Assembly: GCF_032062105.1 (NCBI RefSeq)
Contig: NW_026932328.1
Coordinates: 186,001 to 250,000, forward strand
From: Saccostrea cucullata
Lineage: Eukaryota
DNA length: 64,000 bases
Direction: 5' to 3'
The number at the start of each line of letters is the position of its first letter. The first letter of the stretch is position 1. The position numbers and the translations under genes were made by a program. The notes under the pieces were generated by a model, which saw only the letters and a program-made list of their open reading frames with translations, was not told where the DNA came from and searched no databases. Shown here in pieces: positions 20,345 through 51,872 of the stretch.

Positions 20345-21375
20345 GATTGGATGGCAAGGAGGAATATAAAATATAAAACAGATGAGTCAGACTCCACAGG
20401 ACATTTCGTATCGACATAAGAATGGAAATCACCATTGCTAATTGACAATACATGTACGTCGTCGATATATCTAAATGTCGAGTTGATGGCCAAAGCAAGT
20501 GTTTTATTCTTTTCAAGCATAAGATGTTGCAAAAATTCTGATTTATATTGATACAAAAATATATTTAGGTCTGCTGATAACAGGGCGCAATTGGTACCCA
20601 TGAAAATTACAGTCGATTGTTGGAAGACCTGGTCTCCAAAACAACATAGATATTGTCAATGACAAACTCAAGCATCTTTTGATGTCAAATTCAGAGTTGT
20701 TGTGTGTACAATCAGAATGTTTTTAACAAAATAATTTTGCAAATGACCGTTGACAAGGTAATTAAATTTACGAGTTCCATTTTTATTGAAAAAGCAGCTG
20801 TTAATATCAAAAAGCCTGGACTTTAATCTATCGTGGGGAATGGTTGTTTATAAAGTTGAAAAGTCGTAAGTTTTTAAGCAGTTGATTTTCAAAAAATCTT
20901 GTGATTTCAATTTGTCGAAAAAAATCCTTGAATTTTTTAAGTATCCACATCTGATTAAAACCACCTTTTGAGTATATTGTTGCACAGTACTCTTGACGTT
21001 TCTCCTTCACTTCTGTTAATATTTAAGTAAAGAAAGAGGCTTGATTGAATATTTACTGAAACCCGCAATGTATCTTTGTTTGTAAGGATTCTTATGAAGT
21101 TTCCGAATCCAAAATTTATATGGTAGTTCAAATTTATTTTGGTATTTAGAATATTGAAAACATTCAAAACTGACATATTATTTTGAAGAATTTCTTTCTT
21201 AGAAACTTAGGGAACCATGAGTATACGTTGAATTATTACTTGTAGAATTAAAACCAAGTTCTTCTAAAATACAATTTATGTAATGAGCCTTACAAACGAA
21301 GACAATGTTGTTATCTGCTTTGTCAGCAGGGACCAGTATGTACTGATCATGTAATCTATCTACTTCTTGTAAAAT
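20345..21375 (-). mobile_element. Degenerate Naiad-type Penelope-like RT fragment
   Basis: MGTNCA, NSTFRYIDDV, NQMWILK and PADKADNNIVFVCKAHY in broken frames. Confidence 0.85.
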
Positions 21376-29716: not shown

Positions 29717-30479
29717 ACTAAATATTACTCCGGGACAAGGTAAATATGCATTAATTGGCGAAATCAAACAAATTAAGTCGATAAATTGCTGGATTTATAA
29801 ATGCCTTTATTTTTCATATTTAATATGCATGTTGCTCATATAAAATCTCTGTGCACTACATTTATGATATATTATTTATACTTATGTCTCTCGGTTTCGG
29901 TTTCAATAAAAATCCGAACATTTTATACCCCCTCCTAAATGTTTTTTTTTAGGGCGGGGGGGGGGGGGGGGGTAATGGAGTGTAGTAAAATCACGCAGAT
30001 ACCTGTCAAAAAAGTTTAAAGTTTTAAAGTATACCGATATTGTACATATAAAGAGCTTGAGTTTAAAGACACACAATTTCAGAAAAGAACGAATGCACTT
30101 ATGAGCATTGGTAAAATGTGAAAAAATAAACAAAGTTAGCAAATTTTTCATATCAAATCATTAATTGATATCTAAACCACACGATTCAACAATCTTTGAC
30201 GCTGAAATTCACGAAGTATAAAGAACAATACCATACAATGTGGTTGGGGTCAGCCGACTTTTGTGATCTTCTATTAATAGTAAATCGAGAACGGTCATGC
30301 ATTTCAAAAATTTTGTTTACTATGAGCCTAACTTTGTACAAACTTGTGCACATGTGAATAGCAAAAGACGTATAATACATTTATAAAGCTTGTGTGAAAG
30401 TAGGAAATTTGCACACAATTAGGCTGGTACTTAAAATATTAATTAAGGAAGTTCTAAACACTGCACATTAAAAAAGTTC

Positions 30480-31720
30480 TAATCTCTAGTTTTCAAGTTA
30501 CGAAAATAAACCTTGTCCAAAAATTTTCCCTTTCTAACATAAAAATATTTAAAATACAGAGGGCGAACCTTTTCTAATAACTGCGTTTTAAGGTCCGCCC
30601 TCTCTATTTTTCTAGTTTTCAAGCTACGAAAATAAACCCTGTCCAAACATTTCCCCTTATGACATGAAAATATCTGAAATACAGAGGGCGGACCTTTTCT
30701 GATAACTGCGTTTTAAGGTCCGCCCTGTCTCTTTCCCTAGTTTTTTAAGCTACGAAAATAAACCCTGTCCAAAAATTTCCCTTCATAACATAAAAATATC
30801 TGAAATACAGAGGGCGGACCTTTTCTGATAACTGCGTTTTAAGGCCCGCCCTTCTATTTTTCTAGTTTTCAAGCTACGAAAATAAACCCTGTCCAAAAAT
30901 TTCTCTTTATGACATGAATATATCTGAAATACAGAGGGCGGACCTTTTCTGATAACTGCGTTTTAAGGTCCGCCCTGTCTCTTTCTCTCGTTTTTTAAGC
31001 TACGAAAATAAACCCTGTCCAAAAATATCACTTTATGACATGAAGATATATAAAATACAGAGGGCGGACCTTTTCTGATAACTGCGTTTTAAGGTCCGCT
31101 CTGTCTATTTTTCTAGTTTTCAAGCTACGAAAATAAACCCTGTCCAAACATTTCTCTTTATGACATGAATATATCTGAAAAACAGAGGGCGGACCTTTTC
31201 TGATAACTGCGTTTTAAGGTCCGCCCTCTCTATTTTTCTAGTTTTCAAGCTACGAAAATAAACCCTGTCCAAACATTTCTCTTTATGACATGAATATATC
31301 TGAAAAACAGAGGGCGGACCTTTTCTGGTAACTGCGTTTTAAGGTCCGCCCTGTCTCTTTCTCTATTTTTTAAGCTACAAAAATAAACCCTGTCCAAAAA
31401 AAATCCTTTTAATATGACATAAAGATATATGAAATACAGAGGGCGGACCTTTTCTGATAACTGCGTTTTAAGGTCCGCCCTGTCTATTTTTTTTTAGTTT
31501 TCAAGCTACGAAAATAAACCCTGTCCAAAAATTTCTCTTTATGACATGAATATATCTGAAATACAGAGGACGGACCTTTTCTGATAACTGCGTTTTAAGG
31601 TCCGCCCTGTCTATTTTTCTTTTTTTAGTTTTCAAGCTACGAAAATAAACCCTGTCCAAAAATTTCACTTTATGACATGAATTCGAAGATATATGAAATA
31701 CAGAGGGCGGACCTTTTATT
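30480..31720. repeat. ~125-bp tandem satellite array, ~10 units
   Basis: acagagggcg-type anchors at 30556, 30681, 30807, 30931, 31057, 31182, 31307, 31436, 31563, 31700; each unit contains the hairpin gagggcggacctt...aaggtccgccct. Confidence 0.97.
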
Positions 31721-36000: not shown

Positions 36001-36774
36001 CTATAAAATTTTCTGTGTGTCTTAAAGTCAATCAAACATCATCAGTGATTTGTTGAATTTTAGCAAACAGTACATTTGTTGTTTAAAGTCTTTGTCGCAA
36101 AAGATGGTACCAATTTTTTATGCTTATTATATCATTTTTGTTCAATGAAATCCACCTGCTCATGTGTCTATTAAACAGACATTGGTTGCTGTAAATTTCA
36201 TATATTTCAGTGCATATTTCTTTCGGCTTCTTAAGTATTACTGTGCCATCTCAGAATGTACAATTCCTGTAATTACTCTGCTCTTCGGAAGCATCTCACT
36301 TTAATGTAGCTGAAGTTCACAACATCAAATGTCAAAAAGTCAGCAACACTCCTTTGTACCAGTTGGTAGCATACTGGCTGGTCCTTCCAATGTAGAAATG
36401 TAGATTGTGGATATCCGTGTCATCAGGTGTACCTCCTCCAACAGCAGCTTTCATAAAGCGTTTAATTTAACTATTGTTCACTGATTCTTCATCATTCATT
36501 TCTAATGCAGTGTCTTGAGTAGCCCTTCTTTTCCATCTTCTCACAATGAAAATATGTCATGAAAAGTGGTCACATAAACTGTAATCAATTCAATAACGAT
36601 TCCATCATGAGAGAAAGTCAAGCTTAATGTCACATGATTTCTTTATTGTCTGTCAAAGAGCCAATGACATTATTTACTGAACAACACTTGTACTGTACTC
36701 AGGAATCTCACAAATCCCTGCTTATTAACCACATTTTTCTGTTAGAAAGTTTTTTTTTAAATAAAGAAAGCCTA

Positions 36775-37405
36775 TGAAGCAGAATTTGTGCAAAATCTTA
36801 TGCGTGAAAAGAAGAAAACACTTGCTGTGGCTTTCAACTCGACATTTAGATATATCGACAACGTATTGTCAATTACCAATGGTCACTTCCATTCCTACGT
36901 CGATACGATATATCCTAGTGAGCTTGAGATAAAAGATACCACAAAGTCTGACACATATGTTTCATACTTGGATATTTTACTTGAAAAAGATGGTAATCTA
37001 ACAACCAAACTATATGATAAACGTGATGACTTTAACTTTTCTGTCGTCAACTTCCCTTACTTATGCAGCAATATACCTTCATCACCTGCATACGGAGTGT
37101 ATATGTCTTAGTTGATTCGATACACAAGAGCATGCTCTACATATAAACAATTTCTAAAACGAGGCAAATTATTGACAAGCAAGTTGATGAAACAAGAATA
37201 TCAATAGTCTCGTTTAAAGTCATCATTTCGTAAATTTTATGGTCGATACAATGATCTTGTCACTGAATTGACGACGACGACGGATTTTTCAGTTATTTTC
37301 ATATCAAGACAGGGAGCACACGGCGGGTGTGATCGGTCAGCAGGGAATGCTCACTCCTCCATTGCACCTGATCCCACCTCTGATGTTTCGGAGGTCCGTG
37401 TTTTA
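36775..37405 (+). mobile_element. 5'-truncated Naiad-type Penelope-like element
   Basis: FNSTFRYIDNVL, KLYDKRDDFNF, SNIPSSPAYGVY followed by the conserved 3' module. Confidence 0.9.
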
Positions 37406-37823: not shown

Positions 37824-38202
37824 TGTTATGTATATTCTACTATAACCTTATATTGGGTTTTATTAACATGATGTCACTGCTGCATGTTTTTGAAGCAGCT
37901 AATTATCGTCTATTGAATTGTATAATCATGATGTCATTGTTACCAACTATATTTATAATAGAGCTACTTTTTACTAAAAGCATACACTATATTATATAAG
38001 TTTATGCTTGATATATTTACTTAACAAAATTACTCTTGATTTACCTTTTATACATGTATAAATTTTGTCAATCCAGGGAGCCCCTGGCACCCCTGGTGAG
38101 GTATATGATGAGGGCCTCTGCGGAGGTGATGCCTCAAATATGAAACTATGTATATATTTGAAATAAAATCTTTTATTCAAAAAAAAAAAAAAAAAAAAAA
38201 AA
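37824..38202 (+). mobile_element. Retroposed LINE 3' UTR stub (L1/Tx1-like)
   Basis: aataaa at 38162, poly(A) 38179-38205, 14-bp TSD aaattaaaaaccca (37810-37823 and 38203-38216). Confidence 0.8.
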
Positions 38203-38214
38203 AAATTAAAAACC

Positions 38215-38428
38215 CAAGGCGTTCATTAGTTGGATCCAGAAAGTTGTATACGATATATTGAACAGAATAGCAACATGCTATACTTCAAAAACTGTCAGAT
38301 ACGACTTTAGAAAGTTGGATAATACAAGTAATAGTATGTTTCACACAGTAATATTTTGCTATATACGACAAGTTGTGTATGATATGGAAATAGCGCGCTT
38401 GTCCGCGAACTTTTCTAACAGCCCTCGT
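38215..38428 (+). mobile_element. Mariner 3' end remnant
   Basis: Ends in aacagccctcgta (mariner-type TIR plus TA); decayed transposase C-terminus-like sequence upstream. Confidence 0.5.
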
Positions 38429-38449
38429 ACATGTATGTGACTAGGGTAT

Positions 38450-39110
38450 AAAATAAGAACCCTTGAAATTCCTATAGGTTGGATCCGGTGCATCGACGGA
38501 GTAAGCATTCCCTTGTTGATCGGTCCCATTCGCTGTGAGCCCTATGTATTGATAGAATAAACTTCTGTAGTCAAGTCAGTATGAAGAAAAAAGGCCTAAC
38601 AATTGGTAAGAAAATGTCAGCTAAAATACACCCTGAATGATAGATTTAATTTGCTAACAAGGTCATTAGATCAAGCATACAAATACAGAATGCGACTTTA
38701 AAAGAGAAATTCCTGTCACATCAGCTATTCAATAAGAAGCTTAAGAATTTATTGTACTCAAAGCAAGATTTTGAGTAACGAACACACTGGGAGACATAAA
38801 CACTATAATTATTATGAGTGGGCGATCGTGACAGTGGAATATTACTACACAAATAAGTTGACAATGGAAAAGCTGAAGCCATCTCGTTTGTCATGCAATT
38901 TAGTTGTTGATTGGCCTTTATTTAGTCAGTAATACATCCAAATATGAAACAGATGTGGCATACTCTCTTGTGTCTCAAAATTCCAGTTCACTGGGATATA
39001 TCGAGACGACATATAAATGAAAATAACATTTTTTAATTGATAAAACATCGTCGATGTATCTGAATGTCGAATTGAAGGCCAAAATTCAAACAGAAAAATG
39101 AAGAATATAA
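38450..39110 (-). mobile_element. Degenerate Naiad-type element
   Basis: Minus strand encodes AFNSTFRYIDD and KLHDKRDGFSFSIVN; decayed 3' module near 38460-38540. Confidence 0.8.
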
Positions 39111-39131
39111 ATCTAAGCATTGGATTTTTTA

Positions 39132-39338
39132 CTGTATACAGGGTTATTTTCGCCCCGTGTTATTTTCGCCCTTTTGAACTTGTGAACAATTTTGCCCCGT
39201 TTTAAATTCGCCCAGTCATAGTTCTGTTTAAGAAATTATGAGGTGTAATTTGAATTCGCCCCGTTTTAAATTCGCCCAATCAAGGAGAGGGCGAAAGGGG
39301 CGAAAATAAAACGGGGGCGAAAATTTCCCTGTATACAG
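39132..39338. mobile_element. MITE with CTGTATACAGGG TIR and TA TSD
   Basis: ta-ctgtatacaggg...ccctgtatacag-ta with internal ttcgccc repeats. Confidence 0.88.
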
Positions 39339-40792
39339 TATGTTGTCGATCGTATAGCACTGCCTGTCCGTGCCGCCAAATTAACATACCGCTAACGCGC
39401 GGTATTCAGTAAGATAGCACTGCCAGTTGCTGTTATAGAACTAACGTCATAAAAATAGAATCCAATACCTTAATTAAAAATTTGACACATAGGAAAGATC
39501 TAAGACTTCTTTTGCTATATTTTTAAATCAAAACTTGAAATGTGATTTGTTATAACAACATACTTTTTTTTCAGTTGTCACACTTCATTAGATTTAGAAA
39601 TACACATAACAATATAGAACATTTTAAAAAGTACTAGGGTTCTTTAAGCCTTCATTGCTCAATTTTACACACGATTTCAACAAGTTTCAAGACTATTCAA
39701 TAGGCCGATAAATCACTTTTCATCATGATTATTGTGTATGTTTATCAGATCCACCTTTCCTTCAAATTATTGAATTGCAATATTAATATAAAAGCCATAA
39801 TTTAGCTCTTTTAAAATCAATTTACAAACATATATTGAAAAACTTTTAAGGCTAAATATTTTCTCTTTCAAAAAGCAAAATGCATTTTATGGAGATAAAT
39901 GTCTAATATAATGAGATTCTCGATATCCATTTTGAAGGAATCAAATTTGACAGTCTTGTCAAGAATGCATTTCATCTGACAAAGCTTTCCAAGAGCAATC
40001 ATAGTTTTCCAAGAGCAATCATAGTTTATCTCTTCAAATCTACATTCTTCAAACTTAATTCTGCATTAAGACAGGTCTGTTTAGATTGTCTACTATTCTT
40101 CACATTGTGGTTTCCTTTGCAAGGACATTTGGTTTGTTCTCGACATTAATCATATGGATAAACTAATAAAGTTTATCTCCTCTGGATAAACTAGGTTATT
40201 TTGAGCACATAATTATTGACTATAGAAAGATAGACAACTCTTACTTGTCAGATTTATACAACTGGGCATGCGCAAGGTAAACTTCCTTTTCCTGTTGAAC
40301 AACAAAGCTGCTGGTACCAAAAATTTTAACTGAAGAAAATTACTTTCATCTAAGGCATCACGAAGAGAAAGTCAAAGTAAGTTTGTTTAATTAATGAGTT
40401 ATTAATTAGGATCAATTATTTGAATGATTTATTTAAAAATTTAGGGTTTTAGTCACGATTTATCAGATTAAATTTTTGGAAAATGATCTCGACCTTGCTC
40501 ATAGGTCAGCCATGTTGTAAAAAAAAAAAAAAAAAATGAATGAGTCAGAGTAGAAAATTATTCAACTAACTTGACAGGGAAAAGTTTAGTTTAGTTGCAA
40601 TAAATGGTAATATGTTTTGGTATTAAACAATCAAAAAACAAAAAAAAAATTGACAGAGATTAGTTTAGGTGCTATGAATTGTAATTTGTGCTTGCATTAT
40701 ATTTAAATAAATAATAGGAATATTACAATTAAAAAAAAAAAATGATGAATTTTAAATGGAATTAAAATGACATTTCTTTTGTTTTATGAGCC

Positions 40793-42254
40793 ATGTTGAG
40801 AGCCAATAAAACCAGGGCATCGAAGGCCAAAAGCCCATATGCCCGCCCAGTATCTAGGACTTCTGCGGCGCATAGTATTATTAGTTACATAGTCTTTTAG
40901 TGACAGGGTATGGGATGATACCTGGTTAGTAAATTTCATACCTGGCGAGGCGGAGCCGAGTCAGGTATGAAATTTACTAACCAGGTATCATCCCATACCC
41001 TGTCACTAAAAGACTATGTAACGAATTTACCCCATCGATGAAACATTTAATACGTTTTATCTGTTGTTTACAAATGGTTTTCTCTGCTAAATGCTTCATC
41101 AGGCTTATACTGTGCCTATTATGACGTCACGTTTGTGTTTGTGACGTAATACATCGACCGGGTATAGATTTACAACTGACCGGGTATAAGTAATCCACCG
41201 CCTTCACGTGACAGACTTCAACCAATCGCAAGCCAGGATTTCACGGAAAAATCGACAGAGGTGGGGTAATGTAGCCTCCAGGGTGACCACCCAAGCATCC
41301 ACGGTAGCGTCGACGTCCATTGACCCCATCATACCGACATCAGTCAACAGTCATTATTCCCAGGCAGCTATGTCAGTGCCAACAAGAACTTACATGGTCA
41401 GCCAAGAATCGCTTGTTCAATCAGTACCCTTACAGCCTGTCTACGAGACTGCAGACATCCTAACTCCGGTTGTGCAGACTGTACCCACCCAACAGACAGT
41501 GGAGCCGCAGCTGCCTGTGCCAACAACTAGCACTACAGCAGGTATAAATTGCATGGTTGAAATAGATAGGCCTACACCTTTTCAGAGTGTAGCATCAATG
41601 CTTGGAGCTCATGTCTCTCAAACATTGAAAGAAAAAATTTGGAATAACGAGTATGTCGCTTTGAGCAAACTGTTGATCAAAGAGCCAGTTTCAGATATAC
41701 AGCATCATATTGTTTATCTTGATGGTTTAATTCAGGTTAAACCTAAGTACAAAGATGAAAAAATTATGTCTATTTCACAATGGACTGATGCCTTTTTAAT
41801 TTTTGCCTCAATTTACTGCGCCAAGCACTCTGCACAAGCTATAAATTTATTTCGTTATATGGCAACAATTAGAAAAGGTGCAGAGCGTTCACCTACGTCT
41901 TATGGTTGGAGGGATTATGACATCCAGTTTAGGCTGAAAAAATCATTTGATTCAAATCTTAACTGGGGTTCGGTTGATGCTGAACTTTGGTTGTTTTATA
42001 TGCAGCCCACTGTACAAAATTCTAGTCAGAATCCCCCCAAACAATTTAAATGTTACTCTTACAATTTTCAGGGTGTTTGCGAAAAACACAATTGCAAGTT
42101 TTTGCATATTTGTGTGAAATGTAATGGTTCACATCCTTCTTTACATTGCAGATCTTCCCAGAATAACAATGTCAAACAATTCCCCCAGTCTAGGCCCACA
42201 CAACAGCAGTTCCGCCCAAGATTCCCACAGCGAGCAATTCGACCTACACAATAA
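40793..42254 (+). pseudogene. Gag-like ORF interrupted by a 391-bp insertion
   Basis: ATG at 40793 (MLRANKTRASKAKSPYARP...) rejoins in frame at 41268; KIWNNEYV, WTDAF, WRDYD.QFR and C-x7-C-x4-C-x3-H-x-C-x2-C-x3-H-x4-C zinc fingers. Confidence 0.82.
40877..41267. mobile_element. Long-hairpin non-autonomous element (probably Crypton-like) inserted in gag
   Basis: Perfect 61-bp arms at 40884-40944 and 40962-41022; removing the element restores the gag frame. Confidence 0.7.
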
Positions 42255-43862
42255 GTTATGGGATTTAGGCCATTCTCCAATTAAAACCAACAATCTTCAC
42301 AAATTATTAATAAATTATCCTGACAGAAAAGTTGCCAACATATTAGGGCAGGGTTTTGAGAAAGGGTTTTTGTTAAATTATCAGGGCCCTAGAGTAAGGG
42401 TTGAATATAAAAATATGAAGTCTGCAATTCAACACTCTAGCGATCTAGAAGAAAAGATTAAGAAGGAAATTGGATTAGGTAGGGTTTTGGGTCCTTTTTC
42501 AGCCCCCCCCCCCCAATATCAAATTTAAGATGTAGCCTAATAGGTTTATTACCTAAAAAACAAGGTGGATGGCGTATGATAACCAATCTTTCACATCCTT
42601 ATGGTGATAGTGTTAACGATTACATAGATCAGCAAGATTGTACTGTCAGCTATGCTTCGTTTGATGATGCAATTAACATAATTCAAACCAAAGGAAAAGG
42701 GGCCCTTATGGCAAAGATGGATATTTCTAGTGCATTTAGGCTTTTACCAATCAATCCTCAGGAATTTTGTCTGCTAGGTTTTAAGTTTAATAATGCATAT
42801 TATATTGACAAGTGTTTGCCAATGGGGTGTTTAGTATCTTGTTCACTGTTCGAAAAATTTTCATCATTTTTACATTGGGAATTAGAACAGAGGTCACAAA
42901 AGGATGGTATTGTTCATTACTTAGATGATTTTTTTTTGCTGGATCAGCGAATTCTAGTGAATGCAGAGAATTAATGTATCATTTTCAAGAACTGAGTCAA
43001 TTTTTAGGAGTTCCAATTACACCAGAAAAAACTCAAGGTCCTTGTACAAAATTAACATTTTTAGGGTTAGGAATAGATTCTGTTGAAGAGACAATTTTTG
43101 TTCCAAAAGAGAAAGTAGATGAATTGTTGGAAAAGATAAAGTATGTTCAGTGTAGTAAAAAAGTAACAAAGAAAGAATTAGAATCGCTTGTTGGTTCACT
43201 TGCCTTTGTTGTAAAAGCACTACCGGCTGGTAGGGCATTTTGTAGGAGAATTTACGGGGCACTACAAGGTGTTGATAAATCTTTTCATTTGATTAGAATA
43301 TCTAATGAGATTAAGTTGGACCTTCAAATGTGAGTTGTATTTCTGCAAAAGTTTTAATGGACTAACTCGGTTTCCATCAGTAGATTGGTCAGATAGTGAT
43401 ATGTTGCAATTTTCTACAGACAGTTCAGGGTCGGTTGGGTGTGGTGTTGTTTTTGGCGATGAATGGAGTGTGTTAGTTTGGCCAGCAAGTTGGTCTCAGG
43501 AGATAAAGAAGGATATTACTTTGTTGGAGCTCATTCCAATATTGTTAGGTATTGTTATTTGGGCAGAAAAACTAGCTTCTAATAAATTGCTATTACATGT
43601 AGACAATTTAGCACTTGTTCACATAATTAACAACAAAACGTCAATAAATAAGAGAGTTATGGTTTTGCTGAGAGCCTTGGTCCTCAAAACATTGCAGAAT
43701 AATATTCAGATCAAATGTCAACATATTCAAGGTATAAAGAATGATAAGGCAGATGCTCTCTCTCGTTTTCAGTTTTCGAGGTTCCATCAGCTGGCTCCTG
43801 GGGCTCGGCCTTATCCCTGTCCAGTTCCTATGCAATTTTGGCAAATTATTCATCAACTGTAG
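42255..43862 (+). pseudogene. RT/RNase H of the Ngaro element (three frameshifts)
   Basis: ITNLSHP, KMDISSAFR, LPMG, YLDDF, TFLG; RNase H TDSSG, ELIPI, VDN, ADALSR; frameshifts at the C-run ~42510, the T-run ~42935 and ~43330. Confidence 0.92.
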
Positions 43863-44701
43863 AGAACCTGGTAGATGCTAGCATTTCGGACAATACAAAC
43901 AAAGTTTATAGGCAGGCATTCAAACCTTTATTTAACTCTTTTCCACAATTGTGGCCTCCACCTGTTGACCATGTCATCAATTTTGTTGCACACATGTCAG
44001 AGAAAAAATGCGCCTTTTCAACTGTCAAGTGTTATCTGTCTGGTCTGAGCTTTTTTATAAACATTCATGGATGGCCAAATTCTGTGGAGTCATTTTTAAT
44101 TAAAAAACTGCTTACTGGTTACAAAAAGTTGACTGTGTCTAGTGATATTAGAAGGCCTATTACCTTGCACTTATTAGGTCGTATCATAAATACCTTGCCG
44201 TATGTTGCACATTCTTTATACGAGGCAACATTATTTCAATGTGCCTATTCAGTAGCATTTTTTGCATTGCTTAGAGTCAGTGAAGTAATAGACCTTCAAT
44301 CTGATAGTGTTCAGTTATTACAAGACCATGTTAGTCTACTGATTAAAAGTTCTAAGACTGATCAAATGCACAGGGGTTCAGCAGTTAAAGTTCCAAAGCA
44401 TGCCCAGTCATTAATTTTGTTTACAATACTGCAGAAATTTCCTGCAATGCGTCAGACAATTTCAACTACAAAATTTTTTGTGCATTTCAACTCCAAGCCT
44501 TTGACTCAGTATCAGTTTTCTACAATACTCAATAAATGTTTATCATTTTTGAATATAAACACATCGGTTTTTAAATCTCATTCTTTTAGAATTGGTGGGG
44601 CCACACATCTGTATTTAAATGGTATGAGCGAAGCTGAAATCAAAACCATTGGCAGATGGAGTTCTGCTGCCTACAAGTCATATATAAGGCCAATTGTTTA
44701 A
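43838..44701 (+). CDS. Tyrosine recombinase
   Basis: LLRVSE, SKTDQ, SHSFRIGGAT, GRWSS and YKSYIR give the catalytic R-K-H-R-W-Y set. Confidence 0.92.
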   Translation: MANYSSTVENLVDASISDNTNKVYRQAFKPLFNSFPQLWPPPVDHVINFVAHMSEKKCAFSTVKCYLSGLSFFINIHGWPNSVESFLIKKLLTGYKKLTVSSDIRRPITLHLLGRIINTLPYVAHSLYEATLFQCAYSVAFFALLRVSEVIDLQSDSVQLLQDHVSLLIKSSKTDQMHRGSAVKVPKHAQSLILFTILQKFPAMRQTISTTKFFVHFNSKPLTQYQFSTILNKCLSFLNINTSVFKSHSFRIGGATHLYLNGMSEAEIKTIGRWSSAAYKSYIRPIV

Positions 44702-44741
44702 TAAGTTAGATGCAAATTTATTTTGTTCAAAATCGTTTCAG

Positions 44742-45346
44742 ATTGCATATGGATCATTGGTTCATCTTTGATATTTTGGGCTCAGAAATATGCTCAACAG
44801 AGAATGCTTAACAACCTGGGATTTGAATCACATAGGATAATTTGGCATGGAATAAGGGGTATGGTTTGGTCACAGCTTTATCCAACTATCCAAAAGAAAT
44901 TAAAAGATAATAACCCACCAACAATCCTAGTAATACACTGTGGTGGCAATGATATTGGTAATCCGCATAATACGTTGAAGGGTTTACAAATGTACATGAA
45001 ATCTACCATTGTAAATATTTCACAATTAATGCCAAAGACAGTTATTGTTTGGTCTCATATTTTACCACGAAGTAATTGGACCTTATGTCTTTCTAACAAT
45101 GATGGAGAAAATTGGAGAAGAAGAATCAATTCTGCACTTGCTACTTTTGTTGTTAAGAAAATGTGTGGGGCCTCCATTAAATATCCTGATATTTTAAAAA
45201 GACATGTAGCCCTTTTTCGCAAAGATGGTGTACACTTGTCAGACTTGGGTAATGACTTGTTCGTGAATTCTTTAAGAAATGCTCTGGGGGTGTTTTTGTC
45301 AACCACTGACAGATTTTATCCTACTACTCCCACATGTACTTGTTAA
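44742..45346 (+). CDS. SGNH/GDSL hydrolase domain (no ATG start; begins at a predicted splice acceptor)
   Basis: Blocks IIGSSL, GIRG, HCGGNDI and DGVHL. Confidence 0.85.
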
Positions 45347-46069
45347 GTCTTGTCATGGCCAATCCTTGAAGTTGTGAAGTTGCATATTTGAAAATTGAAT
45401 TGTATACAACTACTGGTTGAGTGTTAAATTGATAAATATGTATTTGTATTGATGAATGCAAAATTGACCGCCTAGATTTGTTGGCGGATGACCCACAAAA
45501 AATATGTTTTGTGGTTCATTAGGCAGAATTTTGCAGAGAATGCCACCTCCATGTTTTTTCCAGGTCCCTTGGGTCAAGGTGGTGTTTCTACTGCTTTGAG
45601 TTGTTTGTGTATATGCTGCCATATCGATTTGAAGATCGGCGCATATTTTGTTGTTTTGTTGAAAAAATTGTGAATAAATGGCCATAAGTACGCCAAACAT
45701 TAATTATTTGTAATATTTTAATTAGGTTAGGTCAATAAGGTCATTAGGATATTAAGTATCAATTTGTAGAAATTATTGTTATTGGTCTTCCAATGGTAAA
45801 GAACAATGGTTTGTAAGGGGTGCTTTGCTGTCTAAAAATAACAAGCAAAGACGGTTTTTTGACGTATTTTATATTGTAAAATGTACTTTGCAAACAATAA
45901 AAAAGAATAACCATTCTCCAGACCTCTGAATTTGAGGGGTTTTTTTAATTCCAAACGTAACAAAAGAGGCTATGATTGGCGATGAGAGATGATGAGGCGA
46001 TCTATGATTATGGATATTGCAAATCTTAGGCTTTTTAAACTCCCACGTTTTACTTAAGAAAATGCCGCT

Positions 46070-48175
46070 TAAACAATCATTAATTTTAAACTTCAATATG
46101 CCAATAAAGGAACTGACGCGATTAATATAAGTAATATTCTTAACCACAAAAGAATATATGTACAGTCTTGCGTTCCACCATATTCAACTTGAAGACTACA
46201 CCTTGTATTTCCTACAATTATACATCGACTATTGCTTCCAAACTTTTTTTAATTACAGTAAAACTTTACATGGCCTGGATATCGAATATCTGAACCTCAG
46301 TCCTCCATTGCGTTCATATTCTTCTTTACACTACAACTACAGTCCTGCTGGACACGGTATTACTGGTGACGTAAATAAAATTAATAATGAGGACCTTAGA
46401 TCACTAATTTTTAAAGGTCCTGAATATAGGTAGCCCCGATCCTTCAACAGACGTCGGAATTTCGGGAATAGAATATTACGCCAGGTGATGGACAAGACAT
46501 GAAAAAGAAGACTTTGACACTTTGTCAGAATGGATTATTAAATGCATCAGCTGTATGTTAAAATCGCGCGTTAAGCTATTAAGGGGCATTATGAAAACTA
46601 TCTATCCTCCTGTTTTCAATAACCCAGAAGTAAAAAAAGGAATAATTATTAGAAAGATTACACGATTAGTATGTACTGGTCCCTGTTGACACAGCAGGTA
46701 ACAATGTTGTCTTCGTTTGTAAAGCTCATTTTAGAGAAACATGGATTTAATTCTATAGGTGTAAATCCTACTTAAACCAATAGCTCCCTTTCTAAGGAAG
46801 AAATTATTCACAACCAAATGTCAGTTTTGAATATTTTTAATATTCCAAACAACCAAAATGAATTTAAATTACCATATCTATGCTGGATTCCGAAGCTTCA
46901 TAGAAATCCTTACAAAGATACATACATGTAGCAGGTTCCTAGAAATGTTCTACCAAGCCTCTTTCTTTACTCCTCACCAAAAGTCCAAAACATTAACAGT
47001 AGTGAAGGAGAAACTTCAGGAGTTATATGCAATAATATATTTGAGAAGCGGTGTAAATAAGATCTGGATATTAAAAATTCCAAGGGACGTTTGGAAAATT
47101 GAAGTCACAAAATTGTGCAAAATTCAACAGCATTAAAACTTACGACTTTTCAACTTATATGCAACCATTTCTTCGCGATTAATAAAGTTTAGGCTTTTTC
47201 ATATCATTGACAGCTTTAAAAAGAATGGAATTAGTAAATTTACTTACAGTGTCTTTGGTCATTTGCAAATTTATTTTGTTAAAGGAGATTCTGATTGTTT
47301 ACACAAGTTCTCTGAAGTTGATAATAAAAAGATGCTTGAGTTTCTGATTGACGGTATCTTTGTAGTTTTAATTGGAGACCAGGTTTTCCAACAGTCAATT
47401 GGAATTCCCATGGATACCAATTTCGCCCATTATTAGCAGACCTATTTTTGCATTTAAATGAAACATAATTTTTCCAAAATCTTATAGGTGAAAAGAGGAA
47501 AACAGTTGCTGCGGCCTTCAACTCAATATTTAGATACTTAGTATATCGACGACGTATTGTCAATTAACACTTATGTCGATACGATATATCCAGTTGAGCT
47601 TGAAATAAAAAAAATTCCACAGAGTCTGACACATCTGTTTCATTTTTACATGTATATAACTTGAAAAGGGCATTAACGATGATCTAACAACTTAGCTTTA
47701 TAACAAAGGAGATGACAAAAACTTTTCAGTTGGCAACTTCCCTAATTTTTTGCAGCAATATACCTTCATCGGGGTCTGTAGCTTTAAATTGATTCGATGT
47801 GCAAGAGCATGCTTTACGTTTAAACACTTTTTAAAATGAGGTAGATTATCAACAAACAGGTTGCTGAAACAAGAATATCAGCAGTCATCATTTCGCAAGT
47901 TCTATGGTCGATACATTCATTGCATTGTCAGCAAATACAATTTATCATTAAGTCAAATGCTGACTGACGTTTTTCATACTTGTTAGGCCATTATTTACAC
48001 TGTCTTGTCGACGGATTTTTCCGTTATTTCACAGACATGATAAGGAGCACAAGGCGGAATGTGTCCTTAATGGCACCTGATCCCCCTCTGGTTTTTTGGA
48101 TGTCCCTGCTTCTATTTTGTATGGTGTAATAAACTTTTGAGCTTGAATACTGTTCTTTATATCCATAAATTTCAT
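46070..48175 (+). mobile_element. Longest Naiad-type Penelope-like copy (degenerate)
   Basis: YANKG, the linker P.GH.ITGD..I.NEDLRSLI.KGP.YR, a decayed CxC (cgt-tca-tat), NNVVFVCK, RT motifs and the 3' module; no C-terminal GIY-YIG. Confidence 0.85.
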
Positions 48176-49056: not shown

Positions 49057-51872
49057 ATGCACGCTTTGCCGATATATCTGCTTTTGCTTTCGATCGTGCA
49101 TTCGTGTCTCGGAGCCTGTACAGTCACACCCATTCAAAATGAGCCCTTAGGTAAGAAAATTTTATTGAATAGAACGTTATTGAACAGTAAGAATTACATT
49201 TTGGAGGGGGTACTGGATGTACATTTGCAGTAGCATAACTTATATTACATCAAATGATAACTCATTTGAACATACTGAAATATATTTTGTTGGTTTTAAA
49301 ATAAAAAATTAAGGCTTTTTGAAGATTTAATCGTATATTCTGATGTTGTTTGGAGCAATCTGTAGAAATAAATTAGGCTATTTAGTATAATATGTATAAT
49401 TTGACGAAATATTACTTTGAGGTGAGATGAAAATTGTTTATAATTTTTAGCTTGTGGGATATAATCATCTGATATATGGATACGTCTTTTCGCCGTTGTC
49501 CGGAGACATACCTGTACATACAGGTGTGTTAAGATCTGACAACCTATAAGTAGTCTGTGGTGCATCATGATTTTTTTTAATGAACTGCAGTTGCATGTTT
49601 TGATTTATTTCCTGGTTTCAATCATATAAATAAAAGATTTTTTTTAATAAAAAAAATCAAAATATTTGTTTGTAGAAAAATTGATTTATCACATTCTAGC
49701 TACATTTCTGATGTAGAAGTTTCTTTGTGTACTTTTTACATGTATTACACTAAATAATGTCGAAGACTGTTTTAATGTACAGTGTACTAAAGTTCATGAC
49801 CTCGAAAACCTGCCCAGTATTTAGGCCACAAGATATTCTAGATGTATCGCTCAGTTTTTTAAGGTATCGAAAGCTCTCTGTCATACGGGGAAATAAAAAG
49901 TTATTTCCGATTGCGGACCTCTATGAAAAATTATTATGTAAACGTCAATGCTAATCATAATGTACGCATGTAAGATGTTCATATAGCTAAAGTACGTAAA
50001 TAACCTCATATTATTCATTAAAGGTTTAAAACGTAAACAAAAAATCGAAAAAGAAAATTGAATCATTTTCCTTTTTTACAGCAATGAAGTCATTTCGATA
50101 TTTCTGTGAATATATCCACAACGACAAAATCAAAGGACCGACAAAAATAAAGTATGGACAAGGTTCCGTATTTGAGGATGTGGATTCCTGTCAGAGGTGT
50201 CGATGTAGTCAGCGAGGATTGGATTGCTGCGAGTAAGTAACATGCGTATCAGAGTAACCCCCTCCAAATAAAGACTGAGTGTTCACAGGAAGCCGCACTT
50301 TATATCGCCCTTTTGAGTGGGGAACTAGGTATATATCCTTATTGTGGCAGGGGATTGGGTTAAGATATATGGACGACGTATTGTCAATTAACAATGGTCA
50401 TTTCCATTCCTACGTCGATACGATATACCTGGTGAGCTTGAGATAAAATATACCACAGAGTCTGACACATTTGTTTCATACTTGAATATTTTACTTGAAG
50501 AAGACGTTAATGGTAATCTAACAACCAAGCTATATGATAAACGTGATGACTTTAACTTTTCTATCGTGAACTCCCGTTTTTTATGCAGCAATATACCTTC
50601 ATCACCTGCAAACGGAGTGTATATATCTCAGTTAATTCGATACGCAAGAGTATGCTCTACGTATGAACAATTTCTAAAACGAGGTAAAATATTGACATGC
50701 AACTTTAGGAAACAAGAATATAAGCAGTCTCATTTAAAGTCATCATTTCGTAAGTTCTATGGTCTATACAATGACCTTGTCAGCAAATACATTTTATCAT
50801 TGAGTCAAATGCTGACTGACGTTTTTCATACGAATTTTTGGTCCATTATTTATACACTGAAATGACGACTGATTTTTCCGTTATTTCCCGATCATGACAA
50901 GGAGCACACGGCGGATGTGACCGGTCAGCAGGGGATGCTCACTCCTCCATGGCACCTGATCCCACCTCTGATGTTTCGGAGGTCCACGTTTGCTGTGCTC
51001 CTATTTTGTATTGTTTTATGGACTTTGACATTGAATACTGTTCGTTATCTCCATATCACCCTTTTGAGCAGACCAGTCGTTTTGTAGATCAGTGACTACA
51101 CAGCCAAAACTCAGAATATGTATTTAGAATGACATTGAAAACAACGAAAATACTGTCATTTAAGAGATAAAAAGCAGATAATTATATCAAACTTAAAGAA
51201 AAAGAGAAAAGGAGGTCGGATTAAGTTTTAACATCGTTTGTTACATAATTATTACCATTCTCTAAGCAAAACTTTAAAGATTGACTATTTCAGAATGTTT
51301 TTTCTTACAGGACTGGATTGAAAGTAAAAATAGCACCAAGGTCAATTCCCGTAGAATGTCACATAGTTAAAGAAGGGTGTGATCAATATTTAGTGTACAA
51401 AGGCGACAACATCACAGATTGTGCTACTGGTAGACCTGCTAAAATAGTACGCCAAGAACAAATTGCGCAAGACAAACGAAGTCAATATATCGAAGATATG
51501 CTCTACAAAGAAGTAATGCAAGATATGGATGGAACATCCGGAGCCAATAGAGAAGTCGAAGGAAATTTCAAGCAATGGGTTCTTTTAGACTACTTTCTGA
51601 ATGACGCATTTGTTGGCCGAATTCCATCTCCCATTGTGGATCAACAGAAGACTCCAGCAGAACTCTCCGGGTCTTCACCAATGAAAGCAAACACAGCTGA
51701 TTCAACTATCGGCTCGCTTACAAAAGGTTTTGTTGACAGTCTTGGAGGCCCGGATGCTGCGCGCGCAACCATAATGGAGAGAATTAAAAACTATGACATT
51801 GGTAGTCCACATAACCAGGGACTGAATGACAACCTTCCACTTCTTTACCTTCTATCAACTTTGATAAATTAG
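49057..51872 (+). CDS. Beta-microseminoprotein (PSP94)-like secreted protein C, 268 aa, with C-terminal extension
   Basis: Exons 49057-49150, 50082-50232, 51311-51872 (phases 1, 2). Signal peptide MHALPIYLLLLSIVHSCLG, ACTVTP, SCQRCRCSQRGLDCC, PVEC..EGC..DNITDC. An acceptor at 49052 suggests an upstream non-coding exon. Confidence 0.87.
50364..51056 (+). mobile_element. 5'-truncated Naiad-type element in intron 2 of PSP94-like gene C
   Basis: YMDDVLSI, KLYDKRDDFNF, GVYISQLIRYAR and the best-preserved 3' module. Confidence 0.9.

Follow-up and report, generated by a model that had tools for sequence, protein, structure and literature searches.

How does a retrotransposon express downstream genes that lack a start codon of their own? 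The question is raised by an element lying at about 40.8-45.8 kb, on the plus strand, of a 64,000-nucleotide stretch of the oyster Saccostrea cucullata (NCBI RefSeq assembly GCF_032062105.1, contig NW_026932328.1, positions 186,001-250,000 of the forward strand); this whole stretch is called the window here, and positions are counted from its first letter. The element carries gag, reverse transcriptase (RT)/RNase H, tyrosine recombinase (YR) and SGNH hydrolase genes in that order and is a broken copy of a Ngaro-like retrotransposon. As a preliminary description had stated, its SGNH open reading frame (ORF; 44705-45346) has no ATG before catalytic block I, the first one (44804) standing downstream of the block I serine (~44765); YR likewise has no early ATG, its first in-frame ATG being at 43994. 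That description proposed a spliced messenger fusing the start of Gag to the SGNH esterase. The present analysis points to a broader scheme: in intact relatives, a single splice donor at the end of a disordered Gag leader is very probably joined to alternative phase-1 acceptors before YR and before SGNH, giving Gag, a leader-YR protein and a leader-esterase.

The evidence that carries this scheme comes foremost from the proteins of relatives. Among 54 SGNH homologs, a long, hydrophilic leader of low complexity is present in 25 (24 named gene models and one Logan contig); 5 have other ORF pieces in front, 9 a short upstream part and 15 are without block I. Three pairs of Gag and leader-SGNH proteins, from three element families, diverge at the predicted phase-1 codon: Gag P0055 and P0006 are identical for 98 residues, followed by Gly in Gag and Asp in the SGNH protein; Gag P0101 and P0010 switch from Gly to Asp after 90 residues; and Gag P0115 and P0033 have 97 residues in common, the last of which is Gly. 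The fusion first proposed for Gag and SGNH is borne out by these homologs and pairs. All switch residues observed (Gly, Asp, Val and Ala) have G-initial codons, as phase 1 requires of an exon 1 whose last base is a G in the first codon position. In addition, unnamed Logan contigs of 1177, 1258, 1308 and 1240 nt, whose library type is not visible, encode whole or nearly whole leader-SGNH proteins (P0015, P0297, P0460 and P0462). With lengths of 1177-1308 nt they are too short for the 3.2-kb intron, and the joined form therefore exists in sequencing runs. Gene models and short contigs agree with expression of the retroviral env type, in which a singly spliced mRNA serves the 3'-most ORF; the family of the window copy gives no junction read at a depth below 1.

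The original fusion scheme, well backed by models and contigs for leader-SGNH, was incomplete in one respect, as the same donor also serves the YR acceptor. P0117 of S. cucullata consists of the leader of Gag P0070 followed by YR, with a switch from Gly to Val after ~105 residues. At least six named RefSeq loci of Crassostrea gigas and C. angulata (LOC128164503, LOC128176572, LOC128185949, LOC117689615, LOC105325521 and LOC117682001) list both leader-YR and leader-SGNH isoforms with a common prefix of 112-122 residues. The YR part of leader-YR models begins at a position homologous to 43772-43773 of the window, as located by tblastn of P0030.

Gene models of other shapes also occur. In P0030, P0040 and P0002, only the first ~44 YR codons (window 43773-43909) appear as a middle exon, after which SGNH is joined one residue further in; as sequence models they imply a putative second donor inside YR. 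P0078, P0443 and P0444 are short leader-plus-tail isoforms (115-121 amino acids) with the same donor and other acceptors. Finally, the unnamed models P0298, P0299, P0300, P0301 and P0302 are very long and contain 4-6 SGNH copies, probably because gene prediction has run tandem arrays of such elements together.

The sites and exons of this scheme are located in the window as follows.

41539-41547, plus strand: phase-1 donor, cut 41541|41542 (from phase, RNA reads and alignment to the switch point of relatives).
43753-43772, plus strand: phase-1 acceptor before YR, cut 43772|43773, inside the coding end of RNase H (from rank, RNA joint and RefSeq leader-YR models).
43773-44701, plus strand: tyrosine recombinase exon (from Pfam and ATG scan).
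44722-44741, plus strand: phase-1 acceptor before SGNH, cut 44741|44742 (from phase; matches the junction of leader-SGNH models).
44742-45346, plus strand: SGNH esterase exon with intact Ser/Gly/Asn/Asp/His motifs (from Pfam, alignment and PDB match).

Phase arithmetic agrees with the preliminary description at both ends of the proposed intron: base 41541 is position 1 of a gag codon and is followed by GTATAA, tttcag stands at 44736-44741, and base 44742 is position 2 of a codon in the SGNH frame. The gag glycine codon at 41541-41543 aligns without gaps to Gly99 of Gag P0055, and the donor is therefore the homologous site of the relatives' switch. Donors were ranked with a rough matrix and acceptors by pyrimidine count. 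On this scale, the donor at 41541 ranks 23rd of 242 GT sites in 40793-44745 and third of the 16 phase-1 GT sites in the gag ORF, the SGNH acceptor 10th of 146 YAG sites and the YR acceptor second of the same 146. By sequence alone, donor and SGNH acceptor are no better than chance; it is the relatives and the RNA that lift them above it.

RNA evidence was sought in four of the 24 listed runs (X14, X15, X1 and X2), which were aligned to 41030-45900 at 85% likeness. The raw poly(A) runs X14 and X15 gave 89 and 110 reads, respectively, most of them on a repeat inserted in gag (described below). Thirteen runs have matches to the stretch, none with half of its words; shares below 0.1, for which the inserted repeat is the probable source, were left unused. 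One splice-like joint was found, from 41541 to 43783, in six reads with two starts, all in X14, whose first mate is always on the minus strand; its shorter side is 34 letters long and 9 unlike letters lie between the two sides. In RNA, the donor is thus used as predicted and joined near the start of YR. The break falls exactly at 41541, but the only joint seen from this donor leads to the start of YR and not, as the preliminary description had proposed, to SGNH. X15, X1 and X2 have no joint from 41541 to YR. A second joint, in an X1 contig (41944 to 42509), was set aside, as it ends in AT..CC and is not splice-like.

Several observations weigh against a shared leader spliced to both enzymes. 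The YR joint rests on two independent starts in one of the four runs and derives from a diverged sibling copy. It spans 9 letters where the cut at 43772|43773 needs 10, with reading frame and AG not established; the gap may reflect an offset of one base in the alignment output, or the sibling copy may differ by one base. A join from 41541 to 44742 is present in no read, and since depth over 44616-44778 is 0 in X14 and below 1 in X15, that join is neither shown nor excluded by these reads. Only one of 87 YR representatives (P0117) is a clear leader-YR fusion, the others having been found among cluster members, of which at most 15 per cluster were inspected. One family accounts for all six loci with both isoforms and for 21 of the 25 leader-SGNH matches, which for that reason are not independent. 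To these are added the in-frame methionines and the origin of the gene models, which bear on alternative explanations.

In one alternative, splicing would give only minor by-products, and the esterase would be made from a local start codon, either on unspliced RNA, where ribosomes reinitiate past the YR stop, or on RNA from an internal promoter. An in-frame Met does precede block I in some relatives (P0005, P0246 and P0007). The preliminary description had held that such a codon in intact copies would speak against splicing, and to this extent its reservation applies, yet the family of P0005 also has the spliced model P0006. The proximity of the two frames (the SGNH frame opens 3 bases past the YR stop), the weakness of the donor, and contigs that run through the SGNH acceptor without splicing in X1 and X2 (runs that may be DNA) can all be read in the same sense. 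However, in the window copy and in its 99%-identical relatives the catalytic serine is not preceded by an ATG, the distance from the called start to block I ranges from 8 to 45 residues among 43 proteins, and several families have spliced models and short joined contigs. Translation from a local start is regarded as very unlikely.

Less probable still is that the splicing is real but cryptic or host-imposed, as a result of silencing or of exonization of decayed copies, with no role in the cycle of the element. Very low read numbers, a window copy that is dead, and apparently useless isoforms in gene models (leader, short YR piece and SGNH, or leader and short tail: P0030, P0040, P0078 and P0443) would suit such noise. 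It does not account for the fact that families with poorly conserved leaders (~30% identical) keep phase 1 at both acceptors as well as at the donor, nor for YR and SGNH ORFs that have no start codon of their own in the window, nor for the conservation of the catalytic residues. That leader-SGNH proteins are annotation artefacts or internally deleted DNA copies, rather than spliced RNA of full elements, is hardly credible: gene models can arise without RNA support, in 5 of the 54 homologs the same SGNH position is preceded by pieces of RT, RNase H or YR, and the evidence behind the RefSeq models, like the library type of the Logan contigs, is not visible, but YR and SGNH isoforms stand at the same locus, the switch codon is identical in genera and genomes that were annotated independently, the donor is used in raw poly(A) reads, and a DNA copy deleted between exactly these ends would presuppose that splicing had taken place before.

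Returning to alternative splicing from one Gag leader, the proteins concerned have well-marked parts. The leaders of relatives comprise 90-122 residues, with a basic N terminus followed by a linker rich in Ser, Thr, Pro, Ala and Gln; 5-12 Lys/Arg residues occur among the first 30 in 14 of the 15 leader proteins counted, and most mollusc leaders open in this way. In an AlphaFold model of P0006, residues 1-100 are without secondary structure (pLDDT ~50-60) and are followed by a confidently predicted alpha/beta domain of the flavodoxin-like type that matches SGNH hydrolases in a fold search. The window ORF retains the SGNH motifs Ser (block I), Gly (block II), Asn (block III) and Asp-x-x-His (block V), and the corresponding columns of a 60-sequence alignment (A2) are nearly invariant (S in 58, G in 60, N in 58, D in 59 and H in 59 of the 60 sequences). 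By sequence profile, the best match among solved structures is PDB 4C1B, an ORF1-encoded protein (E = 5.7e-9), which we take to be the ZfL2-1 esterase; 4C1B is not among the fold-search matches listed for the P0006 model.

In the proposed mechanism, unspliced RNA would yield Gag and serve as the copying template, splicing to the YR acceptor would yield a leader-recombinase, and splicing to the last acceptor a leader-esterase. The leader would thereby supply the start codon that the downstream YR and SGNH ORFs are missing, and the weak donor would keep most of the RNA unspliced and Gag in excess. The leader may also be a shared address tag that, by binding nucleic acid or by nuclear import, directs YR and esterase to the ribonucleoprotein of the element, a proposal to which we give slightly less than an even chance. 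By analogy with the zebrafish ZfL2-1 ORF1p esterase, the oyster enzyme might bind or trim lipid or acetyl esters at membranes, for which we consider the chances evenly balanced. Production of Pol by the same splicing route is a more tentative suggestion. A candidate acceptor before pol with cut 42151|42152 ranks third of the 146 YAG sites and is in phase 1 to the first pol piece, but no reads and no gene model support it, pol has in-frame Met codons of its own, and the Gag residues that overlap the site are not conserved in most relatives.

Elements of this kind have been described. Ngaro-like YR retrotransposons with a Hydro-SGNH ORF are known from Xenopus (DIRS-53_XT and DIRS-54_XT; PMC9210276), and in the text available the function of the amphibian Ngaro SGNH ORF is unproven (PMC9210276, PMC7192593, PMC6681497). 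The oyster element resembles the two Xenopus elements, as far as the available text describes them, in the order gag, RT/RNase H, YR and SGNH, in having no methyltransferase and in carrying a hydrolase without proven function. It differs from them in that it is molluscan and would have a Gag leader spliced to YR and SGNH, whereas the available text of PMC9210276 places the hydrolase in amphibians and has nothing on splicing. The esterase itself has a parallel in another class. For the ZfL2-1 ORF1p esterase, the accessible part of PMC3905857 reports hydrolytic activity and binding to liposomes and acidic phospholipids, and in ZfL2-1 ORF1p and CR1/L2/RTEX non-LTR (long terminal repeat) elements, as in the oyster proteins, an esterase is joined to the N-terminal part of the first ORF. 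There, however, the source text describes one genomic ORF with a coiled coil, whereas the oyster fusion would be made by splicing and its partner is a disordered basic leader. The comparison suggests that two unrelated retrotransposon classes have converged on a protein composed of an ORF1 start and an SGNH esterase.

Expression by splicing has precedents as well. In the parts of the sources available, foamy virus pol and env are expressed from spliced subgenomic mRNAs (PMC7828637), splicing is described as typical for the ORF3s of LTR elements, those of rotifers with a GDSL esterase ORF3 among them (PMC5408684), and plant Ty1/Copia elements have a spliced Gag RNA (PMC5580714). Common to these systems and to the scheme proposed here, on the same sources, is a partial splicing of genomic RNA that expresses or balances genes, with a suboptimal site setting the level. 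As described there, foamy Pol is free of Gag and Copia splicing yields Gag alone, whereas the oyster element, of DIRS order, would keep a Gag leader of 90-122 residues on two enzymes. No spliced leader fusions in DIRS or Ngaro elements were found in the available text of the literature searched, which included PMC9210276, PMC7192593, PMC3783388, PMC4157794, PMC6681497 and PMC4495291 and lay outside the founding Ngaro papers, Repbase and supplements. Within that literature, the kind of element is known and its expression scheme, with one Gag leader on several enzymes, was not found in print. The scheme offers a concrete and testable answer to how DIRS-order elements translate overlapping downstream ORFs, a point left open in the accessible text of these sources, and it names leader-YR and leader-esterase as the real proteins to express when the function of the Ngaro hydrolase is studied.

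How far the scheme extends was approached through an SGNH profile search, which returned 4835 representatives at E<=0.001. The best 150 of these 4835 (50% clustering) fall into five groups: proteins with a long hydrophilic leader (23), with a short upstream part (54) or with another part that looks folded (16), long models (9), and proteins in which the pattern used does not find block I (48). Nine of the 23 leader representatives and one borderline case were looked up and are models from Crassostrea (2), Mytilus (3), Ruditapes, Haliotis, Xenopus laevis, Hyperolius and Zootoca. The residue trace that an in-frame phase-1 acceptor would leave is present in 32 of the 43 short-upstream proteins having 8 or more upstream residues, versus 142 of 679 background windows inside the domain; a second count gave 39:18 versus 561:699 (Fisher p=6e-4), and 15:15 in 15 leader-type proteins. 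Because the trace was chosen after some of the sequences had been seen and is read from residues, not codons, we take it as supporting, not decisive. A further point on the negative side is that the non-oyster leaders gave no BLAST match to the Gag set, which is oyster-biased, so that identity of the leader with the start of Gag is not shown there. A metagenome scan yielded one weak locus among 270 pattern matches (L001, 39% identity), which was dropped, with no clear gag, RT or YR nearby, and none of the 17 pattern matches of a viral scan was confirmed.

The scheme is probably general for oyster Ngaro-like elements. It is conceivable, though we lean against it, that animal Ngaro elements at large, in molluscs and vertebrates, are one alternatively spliced gene in which the same leader exon from gag is spliced, in phase 1, to Pol, YR or esterase, each enzyme being tagged for assembly with Gag and splicing replacing frameshifting in setting protein ratios. 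In annotations of oysters, mussels and clams, many genes called 'uncharacterized' or 'SGNH domain' probably represent transcripts of transposons, a point of importance when expression is studied in these species.

The remaining parts of the window copy are given below.

40793-40872, plus strand: true gag start, with ATG and the basic N-terminal motif of the shared leader (from translation and tblastn).
40873-41269, no strand assigned: insertion of ~400 bp splitting gag, ends approximate (from inverted repeat, loose read ends, depth and frame change).
41270-42254, plus strand: rest of gag, with the low-complexity leader to 41541, then a conserved core and a Cys/His knuckle (from alignment and ORF list).
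42118-43862, plus strand: pol (RT and RNase H), four pieces in changing frames (from ORFs, Pfam and frames).
42125-42151, plus strand: candidate phase-1 acceptor before pol, cut 42151|42152 (from rank and phase).
45347-45845, plus strand: 3' non-coding part (from read depth and loose ends).

The classification as Ngaro-like rests on several traits. The order gag, RT/RNase H and YR on one strand, without DDE integrase or protease, is that of Ngaro elements (DIRS order). Pfam scanning of the ORFs gave RVT_1 (E=1.3e-10), RVT_3 (weak, E=0.0018) and Phage_integrase (E=7e-11), and on the SGNH ORF Lipase_GDSL_2/GDSL, both under the curated cut-off. Pfam found no methylase family 3' of RNase H, and absence of a methyltransferase at this place separates Ngaro from DIRS1/PAT according to the accessible text of PMC4157794. 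An SGNH hydrolase ORF 3' of YR, a trait of some animal Ngaro members, is present, its protein being 99% identical to S. cucullata gene models. Split direct repeats (A1 ... B1-A2-B2, the defining trait of Ngaro) were not found in 38000-48000, nor when 39000-47000 was compared with the window by blastn, in a copy that is decayed and has an undefined 5' end; a terminal-repeat self-search was likewise negative. Since these repeats were not found, the element is labelled Ngaro-like and not a proven Ngaro.

The gag gene begins at the ATG at 40793 and not at 41370, the start implied by the ORF list, which was dropped. In tblastn, 40793-40872 matches residues 1-22 of Gag P0055 at 73% identity and also residues 1-28 of P0006, and the rest of gag is 64% identical to Gag P0055 over 333 columns. 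Pfam named no family for the three Gag proteins scanned, and an Atlas search returned only unnamed mollusc clusters. The insertion between the two Gag matches, across which the reading frame differs, is a high-copy non-coding repeat with a 72-nt palindrome at 40880-41026; short inverted ends of the insertion lie near 41027 and 41269. In run X1, contig depth is ~1000 over the insertion compared with ~10 elsewhere (~100-fold), read ends are loose past 41269, where reads from other places drop off, and the repeat is transcribed in both raw RNA runs (X14 and X15). We take it to resemble a non-autonomous rolling-circle or MITE (miniature inverted-repeat transposable element)-type repeat. Because the insertion cuts the ATG at 40793 from the rest of gag, the window copy is unable to make the full leader. 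Just 5' of this ATG, a strong donor-like GTAAGT (40377-40382) and a T-rich tract (40770-40792) suggest an intron in the 5' untranslated region; model P0201 has five additional N-terminal residues, which fits an upstream exon.

Downstream, the RNase H frame ends at 43862 and overlaps YR by 90 bases. YR is a few residues shorter than in relatives just after its first helix (window 43900-43960), probably through a small deletion in the window copy. Past 45845, reads and one contig from other copies diverge.

Elsewhere in the window, decayed copies of another repeat with RT-like coding remnants, presumably Penelope-like, occur at 36761-37403, 46650-48058, 50360-51019 and 20387-21362, and a tandem array with a unit of ~125 nt occupies 30461-31718.

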